A stretch of 37,073 nucleotides of DNA from IMG/VR virus record IMGVR_UViG_3300025630_000025, positions 1-37,073 of that record; one strand, 5' to 3'. The notes below the pieces were generated by a model. It was given only the letters and a program-made list of their open reading frames with translations. It was not told the DNA's origin and ran no database searches. Within the stretch, counting starts at the first letter, position 1. The number at the start of each line of letters is the position of its first letter. Of the stretch, positions 14,938 to 36,325 are shown in pieces. Source of the DNA: a virus (taxonomy: Duplodnaviria; Caudoviricetes). The position numbers and the translations under genes were made by a program.

Positions 14938-15338
14938 ATGGCAGCTACCCAATTCCTGACCGGAAATGCTTTGACGGTGAAGGCATGGGCGAAGAAGCTA
15001 TACGTACAGGCGATTTACGACTCGTATGCTTCTCGTTTCATGGGCTCTTCGGCGTCCTCGCTGATCCAGGTCAGAGACGAAGTGCGCAAAGGCCCCGGTG
15101 ACAAAGTCACGGTCGGTCTGCGCATGCAGCTTTCCGGCACCGGCATCGCTGGTGACGATACTCTGGAAGGCAACGAAGAGGCGCTCATCACGTACTCGGA
15201 CGCGGTCCTCGTTGACCAACTCCGACACGCAGTTCGAAGCAAGGGCAAAATGTCCGAGCAGCGCGTTGCGTTCGACGTGATGGCGGAACATCAGTCGGCT
15301 CTGTCTGACTGGTTCGCGGATCGTATTGACTCGGCGTT
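14938..15338 (+). CDS. Major capsid protein exon 1 (N4-gp56-like); join(14938..15338,16138..16825) = 362 aa
   Basis: VKAWAKKL, GDKVTVGL, GDDTLEGNEE, VDQLRHAV, MSEQR. Splicing gives ...DRIDSAF-FNQLSGN in frame. Confidence 0.9.
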
Positions 15339-16137
15339 TAAACTGAATTGACGGACGCCCTGCCGGGTAACTGGCAGATAATAAACTGTGTGAACTGCTG
15401 GAACATCTCTCTGAGACAATCAGCAGCCAAGCCTTGATGAGTTAGGTATAGTTTGGTAGAGTGATAGAATGAAAAACGATCACGCAACCAGACTGTGCAA
15501 GAAGTGCAATTCCATCTTCCCGTTGAACACGTTTCCCAAGTACGGGGGCGACAATGGCGGGAGGCGGCATGAGTGCCACGATTGTTATCGGGCGCGAATG
15601 ACCGAGCATTACGTAGCCAACCGAGAGCATAGGAAACGGGCGGCTCGTATAAATTACGCCAAAAACCCCGCTGCTCATTGGACGCCTGAAAGACGGGCAA
15701 GGGCCAATGAGTTGGCAAGGAAGCGTAATACCGAACTACGCACAAAAGTGTACGCGATGTACGGCGGAGCATGTGTTTGCTGCGGCGATGCAGAGCCACT
15801 CTTTCTGACGTTGGATCACATTGATAACAACGGAAAGATGATGCGTAAGGAAGTGCATGGAAAGGCAAGCCTGAACCTTTACAACTGGGTTGTGAAAAAC
15901 AACTATCCAAAGGTTCTTCAGCTGCTCTGCATGAACTGCAATTTCGGGAAGTCCCGGAATGGCGGAACTTGCCCTCATCATTGAAGGTTCAACGACCATC
16001 CCGCAAGGGAGTAGGGCCAAGCGGCCCGAAGCGCACAGCCCCTCACGTTGAGGGTGATGATATGGTCTACTCTTACTGGCGACAGTAAGCAGCCGAAAGG
16101 CGGACTCCAGGTTAGCGACCTGAAGTCGAATACATGG
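15339..16137 (+). ncRNA. Group I intron (IA-like, 799 nt) in the major capsid gene, HNH ORF in L6
   Basis: P1: exon GGCGTT pairs with GACGCC with terminal U.G. P AACTGCTGGAA 15393-403, Q AATCAGCAG 15418-26, R GTTCAACGACCA 15987-98, S TGATATGGTCT 16058-68. P3 CTGTGTG/CGCACAG. Terminal G 16137. Removal restores the frame. Confidence 0.93.
15469..15984 (+). CDS. Intron-encoded HNH homing endonuclease
   Basis: CKKC/CHDC Zn motifs; CVCCG...LTLDHIDNNG...LLCMNCNFGK; located between Q and R. Confidence 0.88.
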   Translation: MKNDHATRLCKKCNSIFPLNTFPKYGGDNGGRRHECHDCYRARMTEHYVANREHRKRAARINYAKNPAAHWTPERRARANELARKRNTELRTKVYAMYGGACVCCGDAEPLFLTLDHIDNNGKMMRKEVHGKASLNLYNWVVKNNYPKVLQLLCMNCNFGKSRNGGTCPHH

Positions 16138-16825
16138 CTTCAACCAGCTTTCTGGCAACACGGCCCAGACGGACACCCGCTACACGGGTTCCAACTCGAC
16201 CGTGGCACCGTCAACGAATAACCTCATTCGTGTCGGTACGTCGGCAACCACGTCGGACGCTTCGTTGTCCACCGTTGACACCTTCACCATCACGACGCTT
16301 GACCGCGCCGTGGCGAAGGCGAAGACGCTCAACGACAGCGGCCAGCCCATCATTCGTCCGATCCGCTACAAGGGTCAGGACAAGTATGTGGCGTTCCTCC
16401 ACCCGTACCAGGTCTACAGCCTGCGCACGACGGCCACGGCGAACACCGTGACGTGGTGGGAAATCAACCGTTCGGCTCTGTCGGGCGGTCGGGAGGAAGG
16501 TGCTGACAACATCTACCGTGGTTCGGTTGGTGAATACAACAACGTCATCATCCACGAGTCGGCCCGCGTGCCGCTTTGCTGCGATACGACGACGCCTGTT
16601 GCGAACACCCGTCGCGCGATTTTCTGTGGCGCACAGTCGGCCATCATGGCGACCGGGCGCGACAGCGACTCGCCTGACGCCAAGATGTCGCTGAAGACCG
16701 AAGAGTTTGACTACGGAAACCAAGTAGGCGTTTCCGCTGGTCTCATCTGGGGTCTGAAGAAAGCTATCTTCAACAGCAACGACTTCGGCGTCATCACCAT
16801 GCACAGCTATGCTGCGGCACCGTAA
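16138..16825 (+). CDS. Major capsid protein exon 2
   Basis: YVAFLHPYQVYSLR, GEYNNVIIHE, RRAIFCGAQ, EEFDYGN, GLKKAIFNSNDFGVI. Confidence 0.9.
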
Positions 16826-16838
16826 GGAGGGATGAACT

Positions 16839-17300
16839 ATGGCTGATTGGACAATGACCAATTCGCCTGCCCTCACGGGTGGGTTGAATAGCAACGTGGT
16901 GGAAGTGCATGCCGGATCGACGACTGTCCCGTTCGCATGGACGGCTAACGGCACGTCGATTTCGACATCTGCCCTCATCATGCTGGCTCGTATTCCGCAC
17001 GGCGCGGTTATCACGAACCTTCAGGTGGCGGGGTGGAGCCCTGCCGACATCAAGGCGGATCTTGGCCTCACGGGCCAGGATGCGTCCCTGTATGTCGCTG
17101 GCGGCGGCATGTCCTCGACCGGCACGGCGGCATGGACGATCAAGACGGGCGCATTGCCGTCCACTTGCTCGCTCTCTGACGATACGCAGCCGCGTTATCG
17201 CATGCTGACGGCGAAGATCATTTCCGGGTCTTCGTGCGTGACTGCAATCATCCGTGGCTCGATCACGTATGTGGTCGGCACGGGTCGATCTGGACTGTAA
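16839..17300 (+). CDS. Capsid decoration/cement protein
   Basis: AGGAGG RBS; follows the capsid gene; IPHGAVI motif. Confidence 0.7.
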   Translation: MADWTMTNSPALTGGLNSNVVEVHAGSTTVPFAWTANGTSISTSALIMLARIPHGAVITNLQVAGWSPADIKADLGLTGQDASLYVAGGGMSSTGTAAWTIKTGALPSTCSLSDDTQPRYRMLTAKIISGSSCVTAIIRGSITYVVGTGRSGL

Positions 17301-17307
17301 CGACTGC

Positions 17308-17333
17308 GGGGGCGGGCAATCACGCTCGCCCCC
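17308..17333 (+). terminator. Strong hairpin after capsid/decoration genes (weak terminator or stabiliser)
   Basis: GGGGGCGGGC-AATCAC-GCTCGCCCCC, with no clear U tract. Confidence 0.5.
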
Positions 17334-17353
17334 AACTTCAACCACGGTGCCTT

Positions 17354-18766
17354 ATGCAATTCAGGAAGCTGCAAGACGTTCTGGAAGAGGGGATCGAATA
17401 CCACGCCAAGGCAATGGAGGACCTTTCGCTGCTGCGAAGCGAGCGGGTCGAACTCTATCGCAAGGCAGAGTTCTGCTACGACCACGTCTTGAGTTACCAG
17501 CCTGATGCACCGATTACTTTATCCAATCTCGGCGCGCTCTATGCCGAGTTGGGCAAATACGGCATAGCCATTGCGCTCATCACGCGGGCCTATGAGTTGG
17601 ACCCGTCATGGGACAACCTGAATGCCCTTGGCGCTGCCTACAAGCGGGCGCAACACATTGAAAAGGCGCGCGAGATACTGAAGAAGGCTCTGGAAATGGA
17701 GCCGAACAACAAGTTGACGCTTCACAACCTGTCAGGCTGCTACATCAACGAAGGCGAGCCGGAAGAGGCTATGAAGTACGCCCTGAAGGCCCTGGAGCAA
17801 GACCCGGACAATCCAAACTTTGCGCTCAATGCCAGTTTTGCGCAGCTTGAGATGGGTGACTTCGCGAACGGGTGGGACAATTACGACAAGGGCCGCGCCC
17901 TTACGACATGGGCCGCGCGAGATTACGGCAACGACATCGGACGATGGAATGGCGAGCCGGGGCGGAACATCATCGTATACGGGGAGCAAGGTGTCGGGGA
18001 TGAAATCCTCTTCGCCTCATGCATTCCTGACCTTCTGAAGATTTCCAAGTCGGTGATCATCGACTGCCACCCGCGTCTGGTGGACATCATGAAGAGGGCA
18101 TTTCCCCAGTGCGTTGTGCATGGCACGCGCAAGGAGGAGTTCATATCATGGGATCCGAAGGAGTCGGGCGCGGATTGCAAGGTTCCGATTGGTGCCTTGC
18201 CGAAGTTCTTCCGGCGCGACCTCAAGTCATTCCCGAAGGTCGCCAACTACATCAAGGCAGACCCGGAACTGGTGAGGAAGTACAAGAAGCCGGGGCTTCG
18301 CATTGGCCTGTCGTGGGCTGGCGGGACCAAGATGACGAATGTTTCCCACCGCTCCGTCAACCCGGAGGACCTGGGGCCATTGCTGACCGTCCCCGGCATT
18401 GATTGGGTTAGCCTGCAGTACACCGCCAAGGCGGGGGAAGAGGTTGACAAGATGCGCAAGCTGTTCGGCTGCAGCATCGAACACGATGACGCGATGAATG
18501 CGGACCTGAACGAACTGTTCGGCTGCGTTGCGGGCCTTGACCTCATTGTCACCGTCTGCACCAGCGTGGTGCATTTCGCGGGGGCAATGAACAAGAAGGC
18601 CATTGTGATGACGCCCATCAAGTCCGCATGGCGCTACATGGTCAGGCCCATGCCGTGGTATCCGCAGCATGAACTGATTGTGCAGCAAAAGCCGGGTGAG
18701 TGGGGCGATGTCCTGCAGACCATACGCGGCAAGCTGATGGACATGACAAAGGCGAGGGCTGCGTGA
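17354..18766 (+). CDS. TPR-repeat plus GT-B (GT9-like) glycosyltransferase
   Basis: N-terminal TPRs (LSNLGALY, LNALGAAY, LHNLSGCY), then EQGVGDEILF, IGLSWAGG, WVSLQY and LDLIVTVCTSVVHFAGA. Confidence 0.85.
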   Translation: MQFRKLQDVLEEGIEYHAKAMEDLSLLRSERVELYRKAEFCYDHVLSYQPDAPITLSNLGALYAELGKYGIAIALITRAYELDPSWDNLNALGAAYKRAQHIEKAREILKKALEMEPNNKLTLHNLSGCYINEGEPEEAMKYALKALEQDPDNPNFALNASFAQLEMGDFANGWDNYDKGRALTTWAARDYGNDIGRWNGEPGRNIIVYGEQGVGDEILFASCIPDLLKISKSVIIDCHPRLVDIMKRAFPQCVVHGTRKEEFISWDPKESGADCKVPIGALPKFFRRDLKSFPKVANYIKADPELVRKYKKPGLRIGLSWAGGTKMTNVSHRSVNPEDLGPLLTVPGIDWVSLQYTAKAGEEVDKMRKLFGCSIEHDDAMNADLNELFGCVAGLDLIVTVCTSVVHFAGAMNKKAIVMTPIKSAWRYMVRPMPWYPQHELIVQQKPGEWGDVLQTIRGKLMDMTKARAA

Positions 18767-19032
18767 GCGGCAAGAAGCGCCCCCTTAAGTATTTCATAAG
18801 GGGTCGCTCGCTGGAGCCTAAAACGGTTGGCTGGCGCACCATCTGCGAGGTTCACCGCAACATATTGAAAATCGTTGATGACGAAATAAAGCCGAAGGAC
18901 GAGGCCCTGGCTGCGCGTCTCTCTGACCTGGTCGAGGAGTGTTATGATCTCGGCAAGCGCATGGACGCCAAGTTGCGGGAGAATTCGGTCGATTACATGT
19001 CACAGGTCTATATCAAGAACTCAGGCAGGTGA
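18763..19032 (+). CDS. Hypothetical protein (paralog A)
   Basis: GTGA overlap; shares WRTICEV...YDLGKRMD with the next gene. Confidence 0.75.
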   Translation: MSGKKRPLKYFIRGRSLEPKTVGWRTICEVHRNILKIVDDEIKPKDEALAARLSDLVEECYDLGKRMDAKLRENSVDYMSQVYIKNSGR

Positions 19033-19310
19033 TTGCACACATGAAGACACACAAGCGCCCCCTGCAATACTTCATCAGGGATAAGTCCCTTGAGCCCGCA
19101 AAGAGTGGCTGGCGCACCATCTGTGAGGTTCAGCGGCAGTTGCTGAAGATGGTGGATGACGAATTGAAGCCAAAAGACCCGGAACTGGCATCCAAGTTCA
19201 CGACGCTGATCGAGGAGTCATATGACCTCGGCAAGCGGATGGACAGGCGACTGCGCGAGTTCAACGGGCATTACATCCAGGATGTTTATGAGCAAATCCA
19301 ACCTGATTAG
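19029..19310 (+). CDS. Hypothetical protein (paralog B)
   Basis: GTGA overlap; tandem paralog of the previous gene. Confidence 0.75.
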   Translation: MIAHMKTHKRPLQYFIRDKSLEPAKSGWRTICEVQRQLLKMVDDELKPKDPELASKFTTLIEESYDLGKRMDRRLREFNGHYIQDVYEQIQPD

Positions 19311-19806
19311 CGACGAATACAAGCAACTGCAGATCAAGACACACGAGGATAACCCGGAGTGGGGACGGGCGGCTCAAGCCAATGCTTCTGCCATCTTGAA
19401 GTTCTGCAAGGATAACGGCTTCAAGAAAGTTCTCGACTACGGATGCGGCAAGCAGAGGCTTAGGGATGCCTTGGCCCCCCACGGCATTGAGGTGTCGGGC
19501 TACGATCCCGGCATTCCGGGGCTGGACGTGTCGCCACCGCCACATAACCTCGTGGTCTGCATTGATGTCCTTGAGCATATTGAGCCTGAGTACCTTGACG
19601 ACGTCTTGCAAGACATCAGGCGTCTGACGAAGAAGATTGGCATTTTCACGATCTCGACACGACCTGCCGAAACGATTTTGGCAGACGGCACGAATGCACA
19701 CCGGATCATAGAGCCGTCAAGCTGGTGGCTGGACCGGCTTTGCCGGGTTTTCAGCGTCCATATGTTCACCCGCGAAAAGGACGGCTTCGGAGTGCTTGTG
19801 CAATGA
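19288..19806 (+). CDS. Class I SAM-dependent methyltransferase
   Basis: VLDYGCGK, YDP, VVCIDVLEHI. Confidence 0.9.
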   Translation: MSKSNLISDEYKQLQIKTHEDNPEWGRAAQANASAILKFCKDNGFKKVLDYGCGKQRLRDALAPHGIEVSGYDPGIPGLDVSPPPHNLVVCIDVLEHIEPEYLDDVLQDIRRLTKKIGIFTISTRPAETILADGTNAHRIIEPSSWWLDRLCRVFSVHMFTREKDGFGVLVQ

Positions 19807-20522
19807 AGATATACATCGGCTACGACGATCGCGAACAGACAGCCTACGACGTTTGCAAGCATTCCATATTGAAGCGTGCGAGCATCCCGGTGGAAGTCAT
19901 TCCGCTGATGCACAAGCCCTTGAGGAACTCTGGGCTGTTCAAGCGGCCGTGGAAGATTGACGCTCTTGGGCAGTACATCTGCGAAGTGGACGGGCGTCCT
20001 TTCTCGACGCAGTTCAGTCATTCAAGGTTCCTCGTGCCGGAACTGGCGCGGCTCACGGAAACGGAATGGGCAGTCTTTGTCGATTGCGACTTCCTGTTCC
20101 TTGATGACGTGAAGAACCTCTTTGACCTCCGAGACCCGTCCAAGGCCATCCAGGTCGTGAAGCACAATTACAAGGCGGATGGGATGAAGATGGATGGCTG
20201 CATCCAGCAGTCCTACAACCGGAAACTCTGGTCGAGCCTGATGCTGTTCAACGTGAATCATCCGGCCCACGACAAGATGACCCACAACGAAGTGAACGAG
20301 TGGGATGGGCGGGAACTGCATCAGTTGAAGTGGCTTGATGACAAGCACATCGGGGCGCTTCCTGAAGCATGGAACTGGATACCGAGCCACTCTAAGGGAA
20401 GCCCGTCTGCCGTGCATTATACGGAAGGGATGCCCTTCATGCCTGGATATGAGTGCGAGCCCTATGCGGCCGAGTGGGTCAGGGAGCTGGCGGGCATGCA
20501 CCATCCGAGCATGAAGCTATGA
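19803..20522 (+). CDS. GT-A fold glycosyltransferase (GT8-related)
   Basis: KIYIGYD, TQFSHSRFLVP, FVDCDFL (DxD), RKLWSSLMLFN, WNW, VHYTEG.P. Confidence 0.85.
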   Translation: MKIYIGYDDREQTAYDVCKHSILKRASIPVEVIPLMHKPLRNSGLFKRPWKIDALGQYICEVDGRPFSTQFSHSRFLVPELARLTETEWAVFVDCDFLFLDDVKNLFDLRDPSKAIQVVKHNYKADGMKMDGCIQQSYNRKLWSSLMLFNVNHPAHDKMTHNEVNEWDGRELHQLKWLDDKHIGALPEAWNWIPSHSKGSPSAVHYTEGMPFMPGYECEPYAAEWVRELAGMHHPSMKL

Positions 20523-25696: not shown

Positions 25697-27128
25697 CCTT
25701 CTCGCCCCTGCAAAGACCAATAAACCCAAGGACTTGCTTGCCAAGCAGCCAAGCGTATTTGATGAAATCATGCAAGGCCCTGTTGGTCAGGTAGGTTCTG
25801 GTATATTGGAGGGGGTCGCCTCACTTCCGGGCCTTCCGGTCGAATTGGCGTCATGGGCGAAAGGCATTCCGCTTGAAGGTTCCAACCTTGAGAATTGGGG
25901 TGCAAAAGGCTGGCAAGACTTTGCCCGCCGCAACATCGGCGAAATCTCCGCCCCAGCACCGACAGACGACCTTGGCCGCGCCTCGCGCAAGTTGGGCGGG
26001 TTCCTGGGTGGTGGTGCGGTTGCGGGGCCTGCGGCAATGGTCCCCAGTCTCACAGGCTTCGTCGGCTCTGAAATTGGTCGCGAGACGGATAAGGCTGGCC
26101 TTACGGGAGGTTACGGGGAAACTATTGGGGGACTTGCTGGAGCTACTATCCCCGGCCTCGTCCGTGGACAGCTCACTTCAGGACTCAAGAAAGCCCCATC
26201 AAACGACGAACTCAAAGCCGCAGGGCAAGCAGCGTACCACGCAGCAGATAATTCAGGGGTCATGTTCACCCCCGGCGGTCTCTCGAAACTCGCCGAAAGC
26301 GTTAAGAGCGCAGCCGCCGACTTCGGGTATGATCCGGCTCTCCAGCCCGGGATCAAGGTCGTCCTCGACAGGCTTGAACAAATCGCCCAAAACCTGACGA
26401 CCTTCAAGGGTCTGGATCAGGTTCGCAAGATCGCCAATAACGTTGCTCGCGATGGCACCAACCCTTCGCAGCGATCCCTTGCCGGAAGCATCGTCACCAA
26501 GATTGACGACTTCATCGAACACGCTGGCCCGACTGATGTGGCATCGGGCGATACCGCAGCGGCTCAGACGGCAGTCAGGACGGCTCGTAACCTCTGGAGC
26601 AGGCTCCGCAAGTCGGAGATGATTGACGAGGCTCTTGGCAAGGCTGAGAGACGTGCCGCGTCTACTCACTCGGGTGGGAACCTCGACAACGCCACACGGC
26701 AGAACATCCGCGCCATTCTTGACAACCCAAGGAAGGCAAGGCTGTTCACCAAACCAGAGCGTGCGCTCATGGAGAAGGTTGTGCGCGGCACGGCATCCCA
26801 GAACGCGCTTCGATTGCTTGGCAAGCTATCGCCGGATGGTAGTGGGCTAATGTCGGTTTTTGGTATTGGTGCAACCTATGGGGCGGGCGGCATTGGTGCG
26901 GCTCCGTTCCTTGCGGGCTATGTCGCCAAGAACATCGCGAACTCCCTTACCGAGCGAAACATCAAGTTGCTGTCAGAGGCAGTCCGCAGGGGCAGCCCCG
27001 GATCATCACCGGCGGACATTGCGGAGAAAGTTCGACTCATCATGGGTGAGGCACAGCGCCGTGCCGCTCTCGCTGGAAAGTCAGCAGCACCCGCTATTCT
27101 CGGCTCATTCAATACGAGGTCTCAATAA
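25686..27128 (+). CDS. DNA ejection (internal virion) protein
   Basis: G/A-rich helical protein with hydrophobic segments; gene order. Confidence 0.65.
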   Translation: MPTDLLAPAKTNKPKDLLAKQPSVFDEIMQGPVGQVGSGILEGVASLPGLPVELASWAKGIPLEGSNLENWGAKGWQDFARRNIGEISAPAPTDDLGRASRKLGGFLGGGAVAGPAAMVPSLTGFVGSEIGRETDKAGLTGGYGETIGGLAGATIPGLVRGQLTSGLKKAPSNDELKAAGQAAYHAADNSGVMFTPGGLSKLAESVKSAAADFGYDPALQPGIKVVLDRLEQIAQNLTTFKGLDQVRKIANNVARDGTNPSQRSLAGSIVTKIDDFIEHAGPTDVASGDTAAAQTAVRTARNLWSRLRKSEMIDEALGKAERRAASTHSGGNLDNATRQNIRAILDNPRKARLFTKPERALMEKVVRGTASQNALRLLGKLSPDGSGLMSVFGIGATYGAGGIGAAPFLAGYVAKNIANSLTERNIKLLSEAVRRGSPGSSPADIAEKVRLIMGEAQRRAALAGKSAAPAILGSFNTRSQ

Positions 27129-27169
27129 TGGCAACAGGCGTCAAATCCTGGTCTAGACCATATCGTTAA
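27128..27169 (+). pseudogene. Orphaned original 5' end of the tail-fibre gene (MATGVKSWSRPYR*)
   Basis: TAATG-coupled to the ejection gene; first 9 codons encode the same peptide as 27801-27827. Confidence 0.8.
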
Positions 27170-27205
27170 CTGTGGTAGAATAGTCTCGTCAATTAACGAC
27201 GAGGC
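27154..27205 (+). promoter_or_regulatory. Promoter and RBS-sequestering hairpin of the free-standing endonuclease
   Basis: TAGACC(27154-59)-16 nt-TAGAAT(27176-81) with extended TG. Hairpin GTCTCGTC(27183-90)/GACGAGGC(27198-205) covers the GAGG SD. Confidence 0.65.
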
Positions 27206-27827
27206 AAGCCATGAAACTGAAGGACATGACGCCTGAAGAGGCTGAACGCAGACGGGAAACCCTGCGGCGCTACAACGGCAAGCCAGAGCGCAAAGAGTAC
27301 ATGCGGGCTTGGTACGAGAAGAACCGGGAGCGGCACCGGGAACTGGGCCGCAAGTGGCAGCGTGAAAACCACGAATACAGCTTGGCTTTGCACCGAGATG
27401 GATACCGCAGGAACAGGACTGCACGACTTGAGAAAGGTCGCGGCGCATATCATCGGGACAAGCTGACCCCGAAGATGATCGCCAAGAACCTGATGGGTGG
27501 GGCGCGCAGGCGAGCGCGTGAAAGTGGCATTGAGTTCACACTGACCAAGGAATGGGTGCTTGAGAAGGTGCTTGCCGGGGTCTGCGAAGTGAGCGGGCTT
27601 AGGTTTGAGCCGGGGAGCGGGCTTCACCACCCGATGTCTCCATCACTGGACAAGATCAGCCGAGATGCTGGCTACACGCCAGAGAACACGCGCCTAGTTA
27701 TATGGGCCGTGAACAATTTGAAGGGCATAGGAACTGACGAGACAATGTGGAAAGTGGTTGAAGCGATGATTTCCAATCGTAGCAAGAAGGGGCCTAGATA
27801 ATGGCAACTGGTGTGAAGTCTTGGAGC
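27155..27827 (+). mobile_element. Free-standing homing-endonuclease cassette carrying a promoter and a replacement gene start (boundaries approximate)
   Basis: Lies between two recoded copies of the tail-fibre start; contains a promoter, an RBS hairpin and an HNH-like ORF. Confidence 0.65.
27211..27801 (+). CDS. Free-standing HNH-like (beta-beta-alpha-Me) putative homing endonuclease
   Basis: Basic helical N-terminus; ARRRA...GIEFTL, CEVSG, SPSLDKI...GYTPENTRLV...VNNLKG (SxDRID-type variant). Confidence 0.75.
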   Translation: MKLKDMTPEEAERRRETLRRYNGKPERKEYMRAWYEKNRERHRELGRKWQRENHEYSLALHRDGYRRNRTARLEKGRGAYHRDKLTPKMIAKNLMGGARRRARESGIEFTLTKEWVLEKVLAGVCEVSGLRFEPGSGLHHPMSPSLDKISRDAGYTPENTRLVIWAVNNLKGIGTDETMWKVVEAMISNRSKKGPR

Positions 27828-27887
27828 ACAACGGCGGCAAGTAACGACTCTGCCGACTCCGCGATTAATTGGCTGGAAGGACAGGCT
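27801..27887 (+). CDS. Tail fibre exon 1; join(27801..27887,28136..29719) = 556 aa
   Basis: Not in ORF track. MATGVKSWSTTAASNDSADSAINWLEGQA joins PSTVNDSSRAMMA, giving the familiar WSTTAxxN...EGQAPSxVNDSxRAMMA N-terminal anchor. Confidence 0.88.
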
Positions 27888-28135
27888 TAATTTGGGCCCC
27901 TTGTGGTGAAAGCCACATTGAATAACAGCGTGAATTGCTGGAACGTCTCGCAAGAGAAAATCAGCAGCCAAGCCCCTCACGGGGAAGGTTCAACGATCAG
28001 GGTTTAACCCGTAGGGCCAAGCGGCCCGAAGCGCGCTGCACCCCAATGGGGTGATGATATGATCTGATCTCAAAGGCGACTTTGAGCAGCCCGAAAGGGC
28101 GGTTTGGGACTTTGCACGCCCAAGCGAACATAATG
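27888..28135 (+). ncRNA. ORF-less group I intron (IA-like, 248 nt) in the tail-fibre gene
   Basis: P1: exon GGCT pairs with GGCC (U.G). P AATTGCTGGAA 27933-43, Q AATCAGCAG 27959-67, R GTTCAACGATCA 27988-99, S TGATATGATCT 28055-65. P3 CAGCGTG/CGCGCTG. Terminal G 28135. Starts with an in-frame TAA. Confidence 0.93.
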
Positions 28136-29719
28136 CCATCCACAGTCAATGATTCATCCCGCGCCATGATGGCTGCGGTGAAGTCTTGGTATAATCTCAT
28201 CGCTGGTGGAACTGTGTCCACGGGGACGGTGGGTGGAACTACTAGCGCCGTCACACTCACTTGCTCGCCTACGGTGGACGCTCGTTCCAACGGGCAGAGG
28301 TTCCTGTTCAAGGCAACGTCAGACCTTGTCGCTTCTGCCACCTTGTCGGTTGACGGACTAACGGCACTGGCCCTGACCATCAAGGGCGTTGCCATCTCGA
28401 CGGGTCACGTCAAGAACGGAGACCTGATTGTGGTGTCCGACGATGGGACGAACTACGAAATCATATCGCAGCTTCGCTCGTCCCAGATCGTCAATGCCCA
28501 GACGGGAACAACCTACACGGTCCTTTCCTCTGACCGTGGAAATCTTGTCACCATATCAAATGTTGCTGCCATTGCCATCACGCTGCCACAGGCGACGTCG
28601 TCTAGCGCATTCTCGGCAGGATTCTGGACCGAGATTGAGAACATCTCAACCTCAAGCCTTGCCACGATTACCCCCACGACTTCGACCATCAATGGCGCTT
28701 CCACGCTCATTGTTTATCCGGGGCAGCGGTACAAGATTACAAGCGACGGCACGAACTACCGCGCCATCAAGATGGGCTCTGACTTGTGGCGGTACAGCGC
28801 GAAGACGGCGAACTATACGCTGCTCCCTGCTGACGTGAAGCCGCCGACAGTTTTTGACTTCACGACTGCGTCTGCCACATTGTCAACCAATGTCGCTTCC
28901 AGCAACTTTTCCGGTGGCGTGTTTATTGTAAAAAACTCGGCATCCACAGGGGATGTGACCTTCGATCCGAACTCGACAGAAACCATAGACGGATCGACAA
29001 CCCTCATCATTCACCCTGGACAAACGTATCTGATCCAGAGCGATGGCTCTAACTGGAAGTCGATTGGCGACAACGTTCTGATGAAGTCGTCGGCCATTGC
29101 GTCGAAGACAGGAAGTTACTCGGCCACGACTGCGGACAGGGGCAAGAGCATCCGCTTTGCGGGTTTGGCAGCAGACGCAACCTTGACACTCCCGGCGGCT
29201 GCTACGTGCGGTGATGGATTTGTGCTGTACGTCAGCAACGAGGACACCACAGACACCGCTCCGTTTGGTGTCATCGTTGATCCGAACGGTGCAGAACTGA
29301 TCGACGGCTTTTCGACCCGCAAAATGTACACGGGATCGCGCGTCACGCTCCTCTGCGACGGTACTGGCTGGCGCACGGTAAATGGTGTTTACAGGTTTTT
29401 CTCTGGCGACCAGACACTAGCAACGTCCACCGTTACCACGTTCACGCACGGCTTGGGCGTGAGGCCGAGGCGCATGTGGGGCGAGTACAAGTGCACAACA
29501 ACAGACCTCGGATACGCGGTTGGAGATGTCGTTAGCGCGGCCGGAGCAATCGAATCTGACGGCGCGGTTGTTCGAGGCGTTACCCACACCTCAGACTCAA
29601 CAACGCTGAAGATGATAACGGGCAACAGTGTAAATCCGTACTACCCGCGCAAAGATACCGGCGCGCTCGCAAGTATTACGGCAGCAAGTTGGCGCTACCG
29701 CGTCTACGCGGAGGACTAG
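28136..29719 (+). CDS. Tail fibre exon 2
   Basis: S/T-rich; repeated modules YT...DRG...TLP...TIDG...SDGxNW. Confidence 0.85.
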   Translation, partial: PSTVNDSSRAMMAAVKSWYNLIAGGTVSTGTVGGTTSAVTLTCSPTVDARSNGQRFLFKATSDLVASATLSVDGLTALALTIKGVAISTGHVKNGDLIVVSDDGTNYEIISQLRSSQIVNAQTGTTYTVLSSDRGNLVTISNVAAIAITLPQATSSSAFSAGFWTEIENISTSSLATITPTTSTINGASTLIVYPGQRYKITSDGTNYRAIKMGSDLWRYSAKTANYTLLPADVKPPTVFDFTTASATLSTNVASSNFSGGVFIVKNSASTGDVTFDPNSTETIDGSTTLIIHPGQTYLIQSDGSNWKSIGDNVLMKSSAIASKTGSYSATTADRGKSIRFAGLAADATLTLPAAATCGDGFVLYVSNEDTTDTAPFGVIVDPNGAELIDGFSTRKMYTGSRVTLLCDGTGWRTVNGVYRFFSGDQTLATSTVTTFTHGLGVRPRRMWGEYKCTTTDLGYAVGDVVSAAGAIESDGAVVRGVTHTSDSTTLKMITGNSVNPYYPRKDTGALASITAASWRYRVYAED

Positions 29720-34804: not shown

Positions 34805-36325
34805 ATGCCATCCCTAGCCGACCTTCTCCGCAATGACCCGTGGGGCGCTCCCCCGCAAACACCGCTTGCCAAGACAGTGACGGATGTCGGCTTTGACCCG
34901 TCCTTGGGCTTTGCCGGGGCGGTGGATACCTACCTCGCACGCCTCAAGAAGATGCAGGGCGGTCTTGCACAGGACATGCTCGACACCGCTGCGGACCCTA
35001 ATGCAGAGGGCATCCAGAGGGCAGCGAACCTGCTAGGCGGGCTTGGGCTGAAGATCGCAAACGTGCCTATGGCGCTGATGCCATCGTCTCAGGAACTCAG
35101 GGACCGTGCCTATCAGGCGGGGGCATCTCCAGAGGTCCAGGCGCTTGGTGGGGCTTTGGGTGATGTGGTCAACATTCCAGACCCTGCTACGGTAGGTCCT
35201 GCGCTTGCGGCTCTTGTGAAGGCGGGGGCGACAGCGAAGGGTCTGGCTGCGGCTGCACCATTGGGGTTTAAGGCTATGGCCGTTGCTCCGGGTAAGGGGC
35301 GCGGTCTTGCAGAACTTCTCGCAGACGCTACTCCAGCAGAACAAGCAGCCCTCAAGGCTAGGCTGGAAGCAGAAGCAGCACAGACAGGTGGTCAGGCTTC
35401 CAGTGTTTCACGGGAACAAGCCTTGAATGGGCTGACGGGGGATAACGGCATCATCGCCTATCACGGTTCCCCTCATTCCTTCGACAAGTTCGATATGTCG
35501 AAGATTGGAACGGGTGAGGGGGCGCAGGCTTATGGGCATGGGTTGTATTTTGCTGAGAAAGAGGATGTTGCAAGGGCGTATCGGGACGCTCTTTCTGATG
35601 CAAAGGTCCAATCACCAGATGGGTCTCAGGTATGGTCGTTCCCAAAAACTGGTGGCATTTCCCTAAGTATAAACCCAAATAACGAAGTTGATTGGGCGGC
35701 TAGTAGTTACCTACAGAACGCTAACGGTGACGTTGATAAGGCAATCAGCAACATTATGAAGTCCAGATATGCGGACTCGCCTCTGGAAAAAAAGACTATC
35801 GCAAAACTGAATGAGTGGAAATCATCAGGCGTAAAATTATCGTCAGACGGCTCCATGTACCAAGTCCACCTCAACGTCCAGCCCCATGAACTGCTTGATT
35901 GGGATAAGCCTCTGAGTGAGCAGCCGAAGGCAGTGAGAGACGCGCTTCATTCACAGCCTGAAGTTCAGCAGAGAATTGCTGACGCATCCAAGATTCTTGG
36001 CCCAAAAGCGGCAGACATGAAGGGGGAGTCGGCATATGCGGCGCTAACTGGGTGGCGTCGTGGAGCTCAATTGTCGCCCCCTACAGAAGTTTCTGCGGCT
36101 GTGTCTCAAAGGCTGAAGCAAGCAGGCGTAAAAGGCATAAAGTACAAAGACGCAGGCTCCCGTGACGGTGTTGGCGGGACCAACAACTACGTCATATTTG
36201 ATGACAATCTAATCACCATCCTAAAGAAGTATGGCATCCCCATGACCGCAGGCGCAGGCGGGGCAATGCTGGTTTCAGGTCAGCATATGCCCCCCGATAT
36301 TGCGGCCCAGCTACAGCAGCAGTAG
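34805..36325 (+). CDS. Protein with ADP-ribosyltransferase-like domain of phage polyvalent/internal proteins
   Basis: AYHGSPHSFDKFDMSKIGTGEGAQAYGHGLYF, LLDWDKPLSEQP, GIKYKD...NYVIFDD. Confidence 0.75.
   Translation: MPSLADLLRNDPWGAPPQTPLAKTVTDVGFDPSLGFAGAVDTYLARLKKMQGGLAQDMLDTAADPNAEGIQRAANLLGGLGLKIANVPMALMPSSQELRDRAYQAGASPEVQALGGALGDVVNIPDPATVGPALAALVKAGATAKGLAAAAPLGFKAMAVAPGKGRGLAELLADATPAEQAALKARLEAEAAQTGGQASSVSREQALNGLTGDNGIIAYHGSPHSFDKFDMSKIGTGEGAQAYGHGLYFAEKEDVARAYRDALSDAKVQSPDGSQVWSFPKTGGISLSINPNNEVDWAASSYLQNANGDVDKAISNIMKSRYADSPLEKKTIAKLNEWKSSGVKLSSDGSMYQVHLNVQPHELLDWDKPLSEQPKAVRDALHSQPEVQQRIADASKILGPKAADMKGESAYAALTGWRRGAQLSPPTEVSAAVSQRLKQAGVKGIKYKDAGSRDGVGGTNNYVIFDDNLITILKKYGIPMTAGAGGAMLVSGQHMPPDIAAQLQQQ

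Follow-up and report, generated by a model that had tools for sequence, protein, structure and literature searches.

Why would a phage carry the start of one of its genes twice, with a nuclease-like gene between the two copies? This question is raised by the window, by which we mean the whole stretch of DNA analysed here (a 37-kb virus record of 37,073 nucleotides). The phage is podovirus-like, its portal and terminase being of the P22 type, and the whole stretch is present in six runs, all of them freshwater metagenomes that may be its source. The gene that begins twice likely encodes a tail fibre, as suggested by 9 of 16 homologues that match phrog_11355 (tail fiber) and by a low-confidence structure model of a homologue (mean pLDDT 59), for which the Pa193 tail fibre was the top match (E 1.6e-3); among GenBank phages, a related tail start was found only in a Rhizobium phage (E 2e-7). 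Upstream lies a virion-region gene whose homologues (identities in Table 1) lie in front of the tail gene or of the cassette described below in the loci L018, L022, L098 and L102. The TAA of this upstream gene overlaps the ATG of the tail gene, leaving zero intergenic space.

Table 1. Features of the tail-gene locus, with positions counted from the first letter of the window.
Feature	Position	Strand	Basis or remark
Upstream virion-region gene, 480 aa	25686..27128	+	homologues 44-56% identical
Copy 1, stub of the native tail-gene start	27128..27169	+	native to about 27153
Promoter-like site, left edge of the cassette	27154..27181	+	sigma-70-like, extended -10 TAGAAT
RNA hairpin over the nuclease RBS (GAGG, 27201-27204)	27183..27205	+	z -2.98
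Free-standing endonuclease (predicted), 196 aa	27211..27801	+	phrog_3322 match, PacI-like fold
Purine-rich RBS and TAATG coupling for copy 2	27784..27800	+	sequence; within the last codons of the nuclease gene
Copy 2 / exon 1, 29 codons, working tail-gene start	27801..27887	+	likely donor-derived
ORF-less group I intron, 248 nt	27888..28135	+	Rfam match, restored frame
Exon 2, likely tail-fibre gene	28136..29719	+	homology

The two copies of the start (27128-27154 and 27801-27827) both encode MATGVKSWS, and each ATG overlaps the preceding TAA (TAATG), just as a preliminary description of this DNA had stated. With 3 mismatches allowed, such starts were matched only twice in the window and never in 100 shuffles. 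The DNA of the two is less alike: 8 of 27 nt are different, which alters 6 of the 7 degenerate codons. After its native part, copy 1 runs into four junk codons (RPYR) and then into a stop at 27169. A fresh target-site duplication, against which the preliminary description had already argued, can be rejected since the two copies differ to this extent and since the length of the stub varies between the alleles described next.

Contigs of six other runs (X7, X8, X9, X10, X15 and X24) were aligned to the locus, so that the evidence on alleles comes from short assembled contigs (depth 4-80) rather than from reads or whole genomes. Copy 1 was covered in X7 and X10, which belong to two other studies, and not in X8 or X9; over 27040-27300, X15 and X24 gave no matches and X9 gave scattered pieces only, which is not a sign of absence. 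Empty alleles, which the preliminary description had proposed to look for, do exist in X7 and X10, where they begin with copy 1 and read in frame into the tail gene. One X7 contig shows 0 differences from the window over 27040-27153 (114 nt) before continuing as an in-frame tail gene. Two further contigs, one more from X7 and the main one from X10 (depth 80), show 0 differences over 27128-27151 and, with 15 of about 107 letters differing over the aligned stretch, represent a more distant phage. Joints from 27151/27153 to 28158/28160 were found in X7 and X10, and the leftovers of two X10 contigs (115 and 117 nt) are those expected of alleles without the ORF and the intron, if each of these contigs begins at 27122. 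In viral contigs, a search for close empty alleles by their start pattern returned only the window's phage (3 contigs). Since the empty alleles start with copy 1, this copy is the stranded native start of the recipient, a stub whose length varies. It is the cassette that supplies the start now in use (copy 2), as originally proposed, and the empty alleles carry the codons of copy 1 instead.

X10 also contains an independent filled allele, which covers 27057-27896 with 61 differences from the window, has the same cassette edge and continues into the intron. Its stub comprises 16 codons and is 22 nt longer than that of the window (9 codons), with one silent change. The cassette extends from the promoter to exon 1 or beyond, and the stub of 9 codons may have arisen from the 16-codon one by deletion or may come from a separate insertion.

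The preliminary description had gone further and proposed that the element carries its own cleavage-resistant gene start. On this reading, the first nine codons would be the target of the nuclease, and copy 2 would be a recoded replacement that selection keeps different. The change of 6 of the 7 degenerate codons under an unchanged protein fits this proposal, and so does the fact that the codons of copy 1 are exactly those common to the empty alleles. However, at least 6 of 7 codons were changed in 26% of 20,000 random codon draws made with this phage's codon usage; since unrelated pairs reach the same divergence this often, purposeful recoding of the nine codons is unsupported, and the silent differences between the copies likely reflect ordinary divergence between donor and recipient. 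Nor is there a single recoded form: a comparison of 27779-27896 with a further intron-bearing allele showed 21 of 118 nt to be different. Moreover, carriers retain the native codons 1-9 in their stub (16 codons in another carrier) and would be cut by their own nuclease if these codons were its target. We regard a nine-codon target as very improbable. Provided that the nuclease is site-specific and spares its own carriers, the persistence of native codons 1-9 with their upstream context in one carrier, and of 16 codons in the X10 carrier, means that the target extends beyond codon 16.

Between the two copies, a promoter and an HNH-like ORF had been described. A promoter-like site and a 196-aa ORF are indeed present there, but the ORF departs from canonical HNH enzymes in that it lacks the catalytic histidine and is PacI-like. 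Promoter-like sites number 3 in the region against 0.6 expected, which is weak taken alone; the -10 hexamer of the site recurs before homologues in L022, L098/L099 and L102. The hairpin downstream of it had a stability that was equalled in 1 of 200 shuffles, and L099 has a similar one (z -2.11); this hairpin covers the RBS of the nuclease gene and may function like those of T4-type homing endonucleases (PMC2988022).

The ORF matches the endonuclease family phrog_3322 (E 2e-27) and has no Pfam match at E 0.01. Its structure model (mean pLDDT 87) predicts a basic helical N-terminus and a PacI-type ββα-Me domain (D147, K148, Y155, N159, N168). PacI ranked first in the profile search (E 0.048), in Foldseek (E 9e-4, TM 0.35-0.47) and in VIA (Z 7.9, in a range that the tool calls common, with an rmsd of 6.3 over 103 residues); each of these matches is modest, yet they are mutually consistent. 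Of the four aligned cysteines that belong to the zinc sites of PacI, only C125 is kept. Y155 aligns with the tyrosine of the PacI motif GYSPQN (residue 100), which we take to be the catalytic tyrosine of PacI. PacI-type enzymes are described as lacking the histidine and as giving a role to a tyrosine in the omega loop (PMC5714182).

The nuclease family has 9,627 representatives at E 0.001, and out of 150 that were compared, 131 conserve the pattern D-[RK]...GY...N, while the remaining 19 gave no motif match. D147 is followed by lysine in the window's nuclease and by arginine in homologues, and D-H occurs in 0 of the 131 motif-matching representatives. With D147, K148, Y155 and N168 conserved, the catalytic residues of the domain are predicted to be intact. 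Membership of the DHHRN group (F-CphI / Endo VII) was rejected since D-K/R stands in place of D-H-H...R...N, and the canonical HNH type of I-HmuI does not apply either, the D-H general base being absent. Sequence and model together thus predict a PacI-type His-Me finger nuclease. Its gene is free-standing, lying outside any intron or intein and beside a conserved gene. Some of its homologues are annotated as Srd-like in GenBank, and prokaryote genomes gave 4 distant relatives with an alignment query and 0 with a single-protein query. For Skunavirus, PacI-like HNHEs have been classified and one of them was among seven proteins tested; in the published passage, the only proteins said to be active are two of the I-HmuI-like kind (PMC12724721).

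The relatives of this nuclease often sit at the same place. The best 7 of 80 metagenome nuclease loci, together with L107, have the nuclease gene directly upstream of the tail gene (2 of these 8 loci are the window's phage), and so does L022 from the viral set. The carriers other than the window fall into four lineages (L022; L098/L099/L100/L107; L101; L102), which show no intron where their sequence reaches the site (L098 ends just past it) and no stub wherever upstream DNA is readable. In L022, L098/L099 and L102, the nuclease gene lies without a stub in an intergenic gap; in L022, L098 and L102, the gene before this gap is homologous to the one upstream in the window, and the gap contains the -10 hexamer mentioned above. 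A stub is no fixed trait of the element. Since the stub-less carriers have a gap, it appears where stop and start of the recipient overlap without one. The nuclease gene itself is optional: it was found within 1.5 kb upstream in 2 of 81 distinct tail starts, which were chosen without the motif discussed below (15 of the 95 loci behind this set may have short flanks), and in 1 of 78 in another set.

The ORF-less group I intron of 248 nt that had been noticed 60 nt after copy 2 was corroborated by several features. Rfam RF00028 matches at 27878-28086, scoring 71 bits where the gathering threshold is 50, and excising 27888-28135 gives a 556-aa frame without stops. A U stands at the 5' splice site, the intron ends on a terminal G, and P1 has a U-G pair at the splice site. 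The predicted spliced junction carries the motif of intron-less homologues such as P0017, P0018 and P0022. In viral contigs, a search for other intron-bearing tail alleles gave 6 matches, of which 3 are the window's phage and 3 are chance matches. P0021 shows an intron-type N-terminus in another tail clade, and a related intron, which has its own nuclease, lies in the capsid gene; the nuclease of this capsid intron was rejected as a relative of the tail-locus nuclease, there being no significant match between them. Stubs and introns of this kind cause wrong start calls, as for P0009, P0012 and P0021, which begin inside exon 2 or the intron.

The preliminary description had also suggested that nuclease and intron may home together. 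Both are indeed present in the window and in the filled allele of X10, but the nuclease occurs without the intron in the four distant lineages. Conversely, X10 and X8 hold intron-bearing contigs in which the stretch from 27779, with the RBS of copy 2, is matched, with exon 1 and the start of the intron present, and in which other DNA lies upstream, so that the intron is not tied to the nuclease gene. Co-homing is thus plausible and not obligatory.

Which site would the nuclease cut? The intron site lies after codon 29 of the tail gene. In all non-window carriers, which are intron-less, the motif at this site is changed, whereas the window's exons keep the consensus. Within one tail clade, the third codon past the intron site encodes threonine in 0 of 3 intron-less carrier lineages versus 14 of 14 others (Fisher p 0.0015), a comparison that is biased in that 11 of the 14 others lack a known context, the motif was part of the search query and the window's tail gene lies outside this clade. 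As strong proof of the target, the motif change is weakened by the 81 tail starts chosen without the motif, since only 22 of them have this threonine. The evidence is weak, and it points to a target that likely lies at or near the intron site, as in collaborative homing.

Plain intronless homing offers a simpler account, according to which resistance would come from the donor's codons 10-35 and the intron would be an independent passenger at a conserved site. Such independence would agree with the four more distant carrier lineages that lack the intron, with the intron-bearing alleles that have other upstream DNA, with P0021 (whose context is unknown) and with the related capsid-gene intron that has its own nuclease. 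Against it, the consensus motif is kept in the window's exons and changed in all the intron-less carriers, and the close X10 filled allele also continues into the intron; P0002 and the exon-2-like P0012, with a longest contig of 11042 each, add a hint in the same direction and only a hint. We consider plain intronless homing unlikely and retain cutting at or near the intron site.

A survey of homologues for flanking duplications of host-gene N-termini had been proposed from the start. Duplicated gene ends were indeed found. Among 164 nuclease loci examined, 78 distinct ones had enough flank for a stub test; stubs are a minority, being present in 3 of these 78 metagenome and viral loci (the window, L153 and L331) and in 1 of the 10 GenBank phage loci that were examined out of 42 phage records with a homologue. 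In L153, a 31-codon stub of a prohead-protease N-terminus lies upstream (E 5e-6), a diverged full start overlaps the end of the nuclease gene, and the nuclease is frameshifted near its N-terminus. L331 is a mirror image, with a C-terminal stub downstream (E 4e-10). In the Rhizobium phage RHph_X2_24 (L368), a 17-codon stub resembles the terL start (E 0.005) and lies 52 nt from the neighbouring reverse gene; in its relative P106B, terL starts only once, 56 nt from the reverse gene, and no nuclease is annotated there. Replacement of a gene end was accordingly recorded for the window and for L153, L331 and L368. Several candidates were set aside: L126 and L116 reached high plain local-alignment scores in low-complexity frames that vanished with composition correction, L110 has short DNA repeats and no gene end, and the weak flank matches of L140, L166, L293, L311 and L332 were not counted as stubs.

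These recurrent stubs also bear on a reading in which the ORF is a domesticated or passenger gene, such as an anti-competitor nuclease or a DNA-binding regulator, that moved with the tail-fibre module and left the stub as a recombination scar. Tail-fibre genes are frequently exchanged among phages, which would favour this reading, as would the missing catalytic histidine and the Srd-like annotation of some homologues. Yet the stubs recur at unrelated conserved genes, the presence of the nuclease gene is patchy and the L153 copy is frameshifted. A promoter-like site with an RBS-covering hairpin and the conservation of D-R/K, Tyr and Asn likewise do not fit, and we hold a passenger gene to be very improbable.

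The locus is probably explained by a selfish homing-endonuclease cassette that came from another phage and stranded the resident start, with its target at or near the intron site and with the intron providing immunity. The cassette would consist of the promoter, the predicted PacI-type nuclease gene and its own tail-gene start, here together with the ORF-less intron, and its arrival from another phage would have turned the resident start into the stranded copy 1. The nuclease may cut empty alleles within codons 17-35, with the cut likely falling at the position of the intron behind codon 29 or close to it. Of the two break ends, the right-hand one would then be repaired on the donor's tail gene, while the left-hand one likely underwent one-sided joining within the coding start, because the recipient had no intergenic space and a different left flank. 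In subsequent transfers between close relatives, either the upstream gene or the stub would act as the left homology arm. Self-cutting is likely prevented by the intron here and by amino-acid changes at the same motif in the intron-less carriers. A broader reading, which we offer tentatively and which may well prove wrong, is that the PacI-type, tyrosine-using family forms a homing-endonuclease class of its own that swaps either end of target genes in packed phage operons, with the intron recruited as an immunity device at the tail-fibre locus and with empty, filled, long-stub, short-stub and intron-less states coexisting.

The separate parts of this scheme are already published, which limits the surprise. 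According to the relevant passage of a review, how collaborative-homing arrangements first arise is unclear (PMC10448857), and the locus offers intermediate states for their origin. Its natural empty and filled alleles are good evidence for its history and illustrate that an operon whose stop and start codons overlap is open to invasion by a free-standing nuclease gene with no intron or intein around it. PacI-type nucleases become candidate homing enzymes and a candidate new class, and the cultured Rhizobium phages RHph_X2_24 and P106B are a possible test case for gene-start replacement. In the open-access literature, supplements excluded, we found no description of N-terminal replacement in phages, and the relevant passages of two papers on such nucleases describe no homing by the PacI-type class (PMC5714182, PMC12724721).

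Compared with known systems, the window's nuclease resembles PacI (PDB 3ldy/3m7k; group 20, PMC5714182) in having D-R/K for D-H, a loop tyrosine and a metal-binding asparagine. PacI is, however, a restriction enzyme with cysteine zinc sites, which are mostly missing here, and it lacks the long basic helical N-terminus of the window's nuclease. The passages on collaborative homing concern F-CphI and the psbA intron of cyanophage S-PM2 (PMC6083498, PMC3984707, PMC2988022). There, cutting at the intron site has been demonstrated, whereas for the window's nuclease we infer it; F-CphI is a DHHRN enzyme, in contrast to the D-K and tyrosine found here, and these passages describe no stranded gene start such as the window has.

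Intronless homing by the T4 seg and mob genes, as outlined in a section of PMC2988022, involves an optional free-standing gene beside its target, co-conversion by which the target is replaced, and RBS-covering hairpins, and one-sided illegitimate repair is described there for introns. The window is similar in that its optional free-standing gene adjoins the target and has an RBS-covering hairpin. The T4-type examples described are intergenic or split a gene into two working peptides (mobA/gene 60, Aeh1 mobE/nrdA), unlike the window's tail gene, which stays whole behind a dead stub.

The closest parallel to this last trait comes from fungal mitochondria, for which the passages at hand describe endonuclease elements with duplicated gene ends in Allomyces atp6, Ophiostoma rps3 and Phlebia atp6/cox2 (PMC4019555) and 'N-terminal duplication' elements in Tremella (PMC7315562). 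As at the locus described here, a mobile element supplies a diverged gene end and the resident end becomes a truncated duplicate; the window differs in being from a phage, in its nuclease class (LAGLIDADG/GIY-YIG in Phlebia), in its very short stub and in its separate downstream intron. The locus probably combines two published kinds of arrangement, the collaborative homing of phages and the gene-end replacement of fungal mitochondria.

Stranded gene ends were also found beside distant relatives of the nuclease, the predicted PacI-type ββα-Me free-standing endonuclease. At L153, the prohead-protease stub ends immediately 3' of a TPTPDR motif, while the layout at L331, with its stub downstream of the homologue, is the mirror image of the N-terminal-stub layout (see table). 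At another homologue locus (L110:1725-3010), the nuclease gene is instead bracketed by short near-identical DNA repeats of 39 and 29 nt. The L368 homologue, located at terL, bears the annotation of an Srd sigma-factor decoy. L361, L362 and L363 come from T7-like phages that infect Bordetella, Ralstonia and Pseudomonas; here the gene for the terminase large subunit overlaps the homologue at its start, and no stub was found at that start in these three loci.

Nuclease homologues with gene-end stubs, and the intron-split capsid gene of the window
Feature	Location	Record
N-terminal stub of a prohead-protease gene, then frameshifted homologue of the nuclease, then replacement start	L153:1896-2878	Ga0068855_100010507
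Nuclease homologue, then C-terminal stub of phrog_21047 gene downstream	L331:2085-2980	IMGVR_UViG_3300037264_003623
Nuclease homologue flanked by terL stub and terL	L368:1043-1720	MW960031.1
Major capsid gene (PF13252), split by a group I intron	window 14938-16825	
D-H-type nuclease ORF inside capsid intron	window 15469-15984	

At the tail-fibre locus of the window, a perfect 12-bp palindrome (27149-27160) lies at the left junction of the cassette that carries the nuclease gene; the allele with the longer, 16-codon stub lacks this palindrome. A third allele, present in metagenome runs X10 and X8, has different AT-rich DNA fused at 27779 to the ribosome-binding site of the tail gene, its exon 1 and the start of the intron. 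In X10, a reading frame terminates exactly at this junction, and the AT-rich DNA may correspond to a second nuclease gene, a rival for the same site. Separately, a tail-fibre N-terminal domain is common to two full-length genes standing in tandem at L023 and L024.

Elsewhere in the window, genes at 17234-20522, within the virion module, encode a protein with TPR repeats, a methyltransferase and a glycosyltransferase-8-like product. A 506-aa ORF (34805-36325) weakly matches ART-PolyVal ADP-ribosyltransferases, and its C-terminal part gives an endolysin-like match.

The group I intron that interrupts the major capsid gene is the second in the window; its Rfam match (15329-16089) has E = 1e-4 and scores under the gathering cutoff. 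The cores of this intron and of the ORF-less tail intron share 80-84% identity, indicating that a single lineage of introns is present in two structural genes, in one with an ORF and in the other without.
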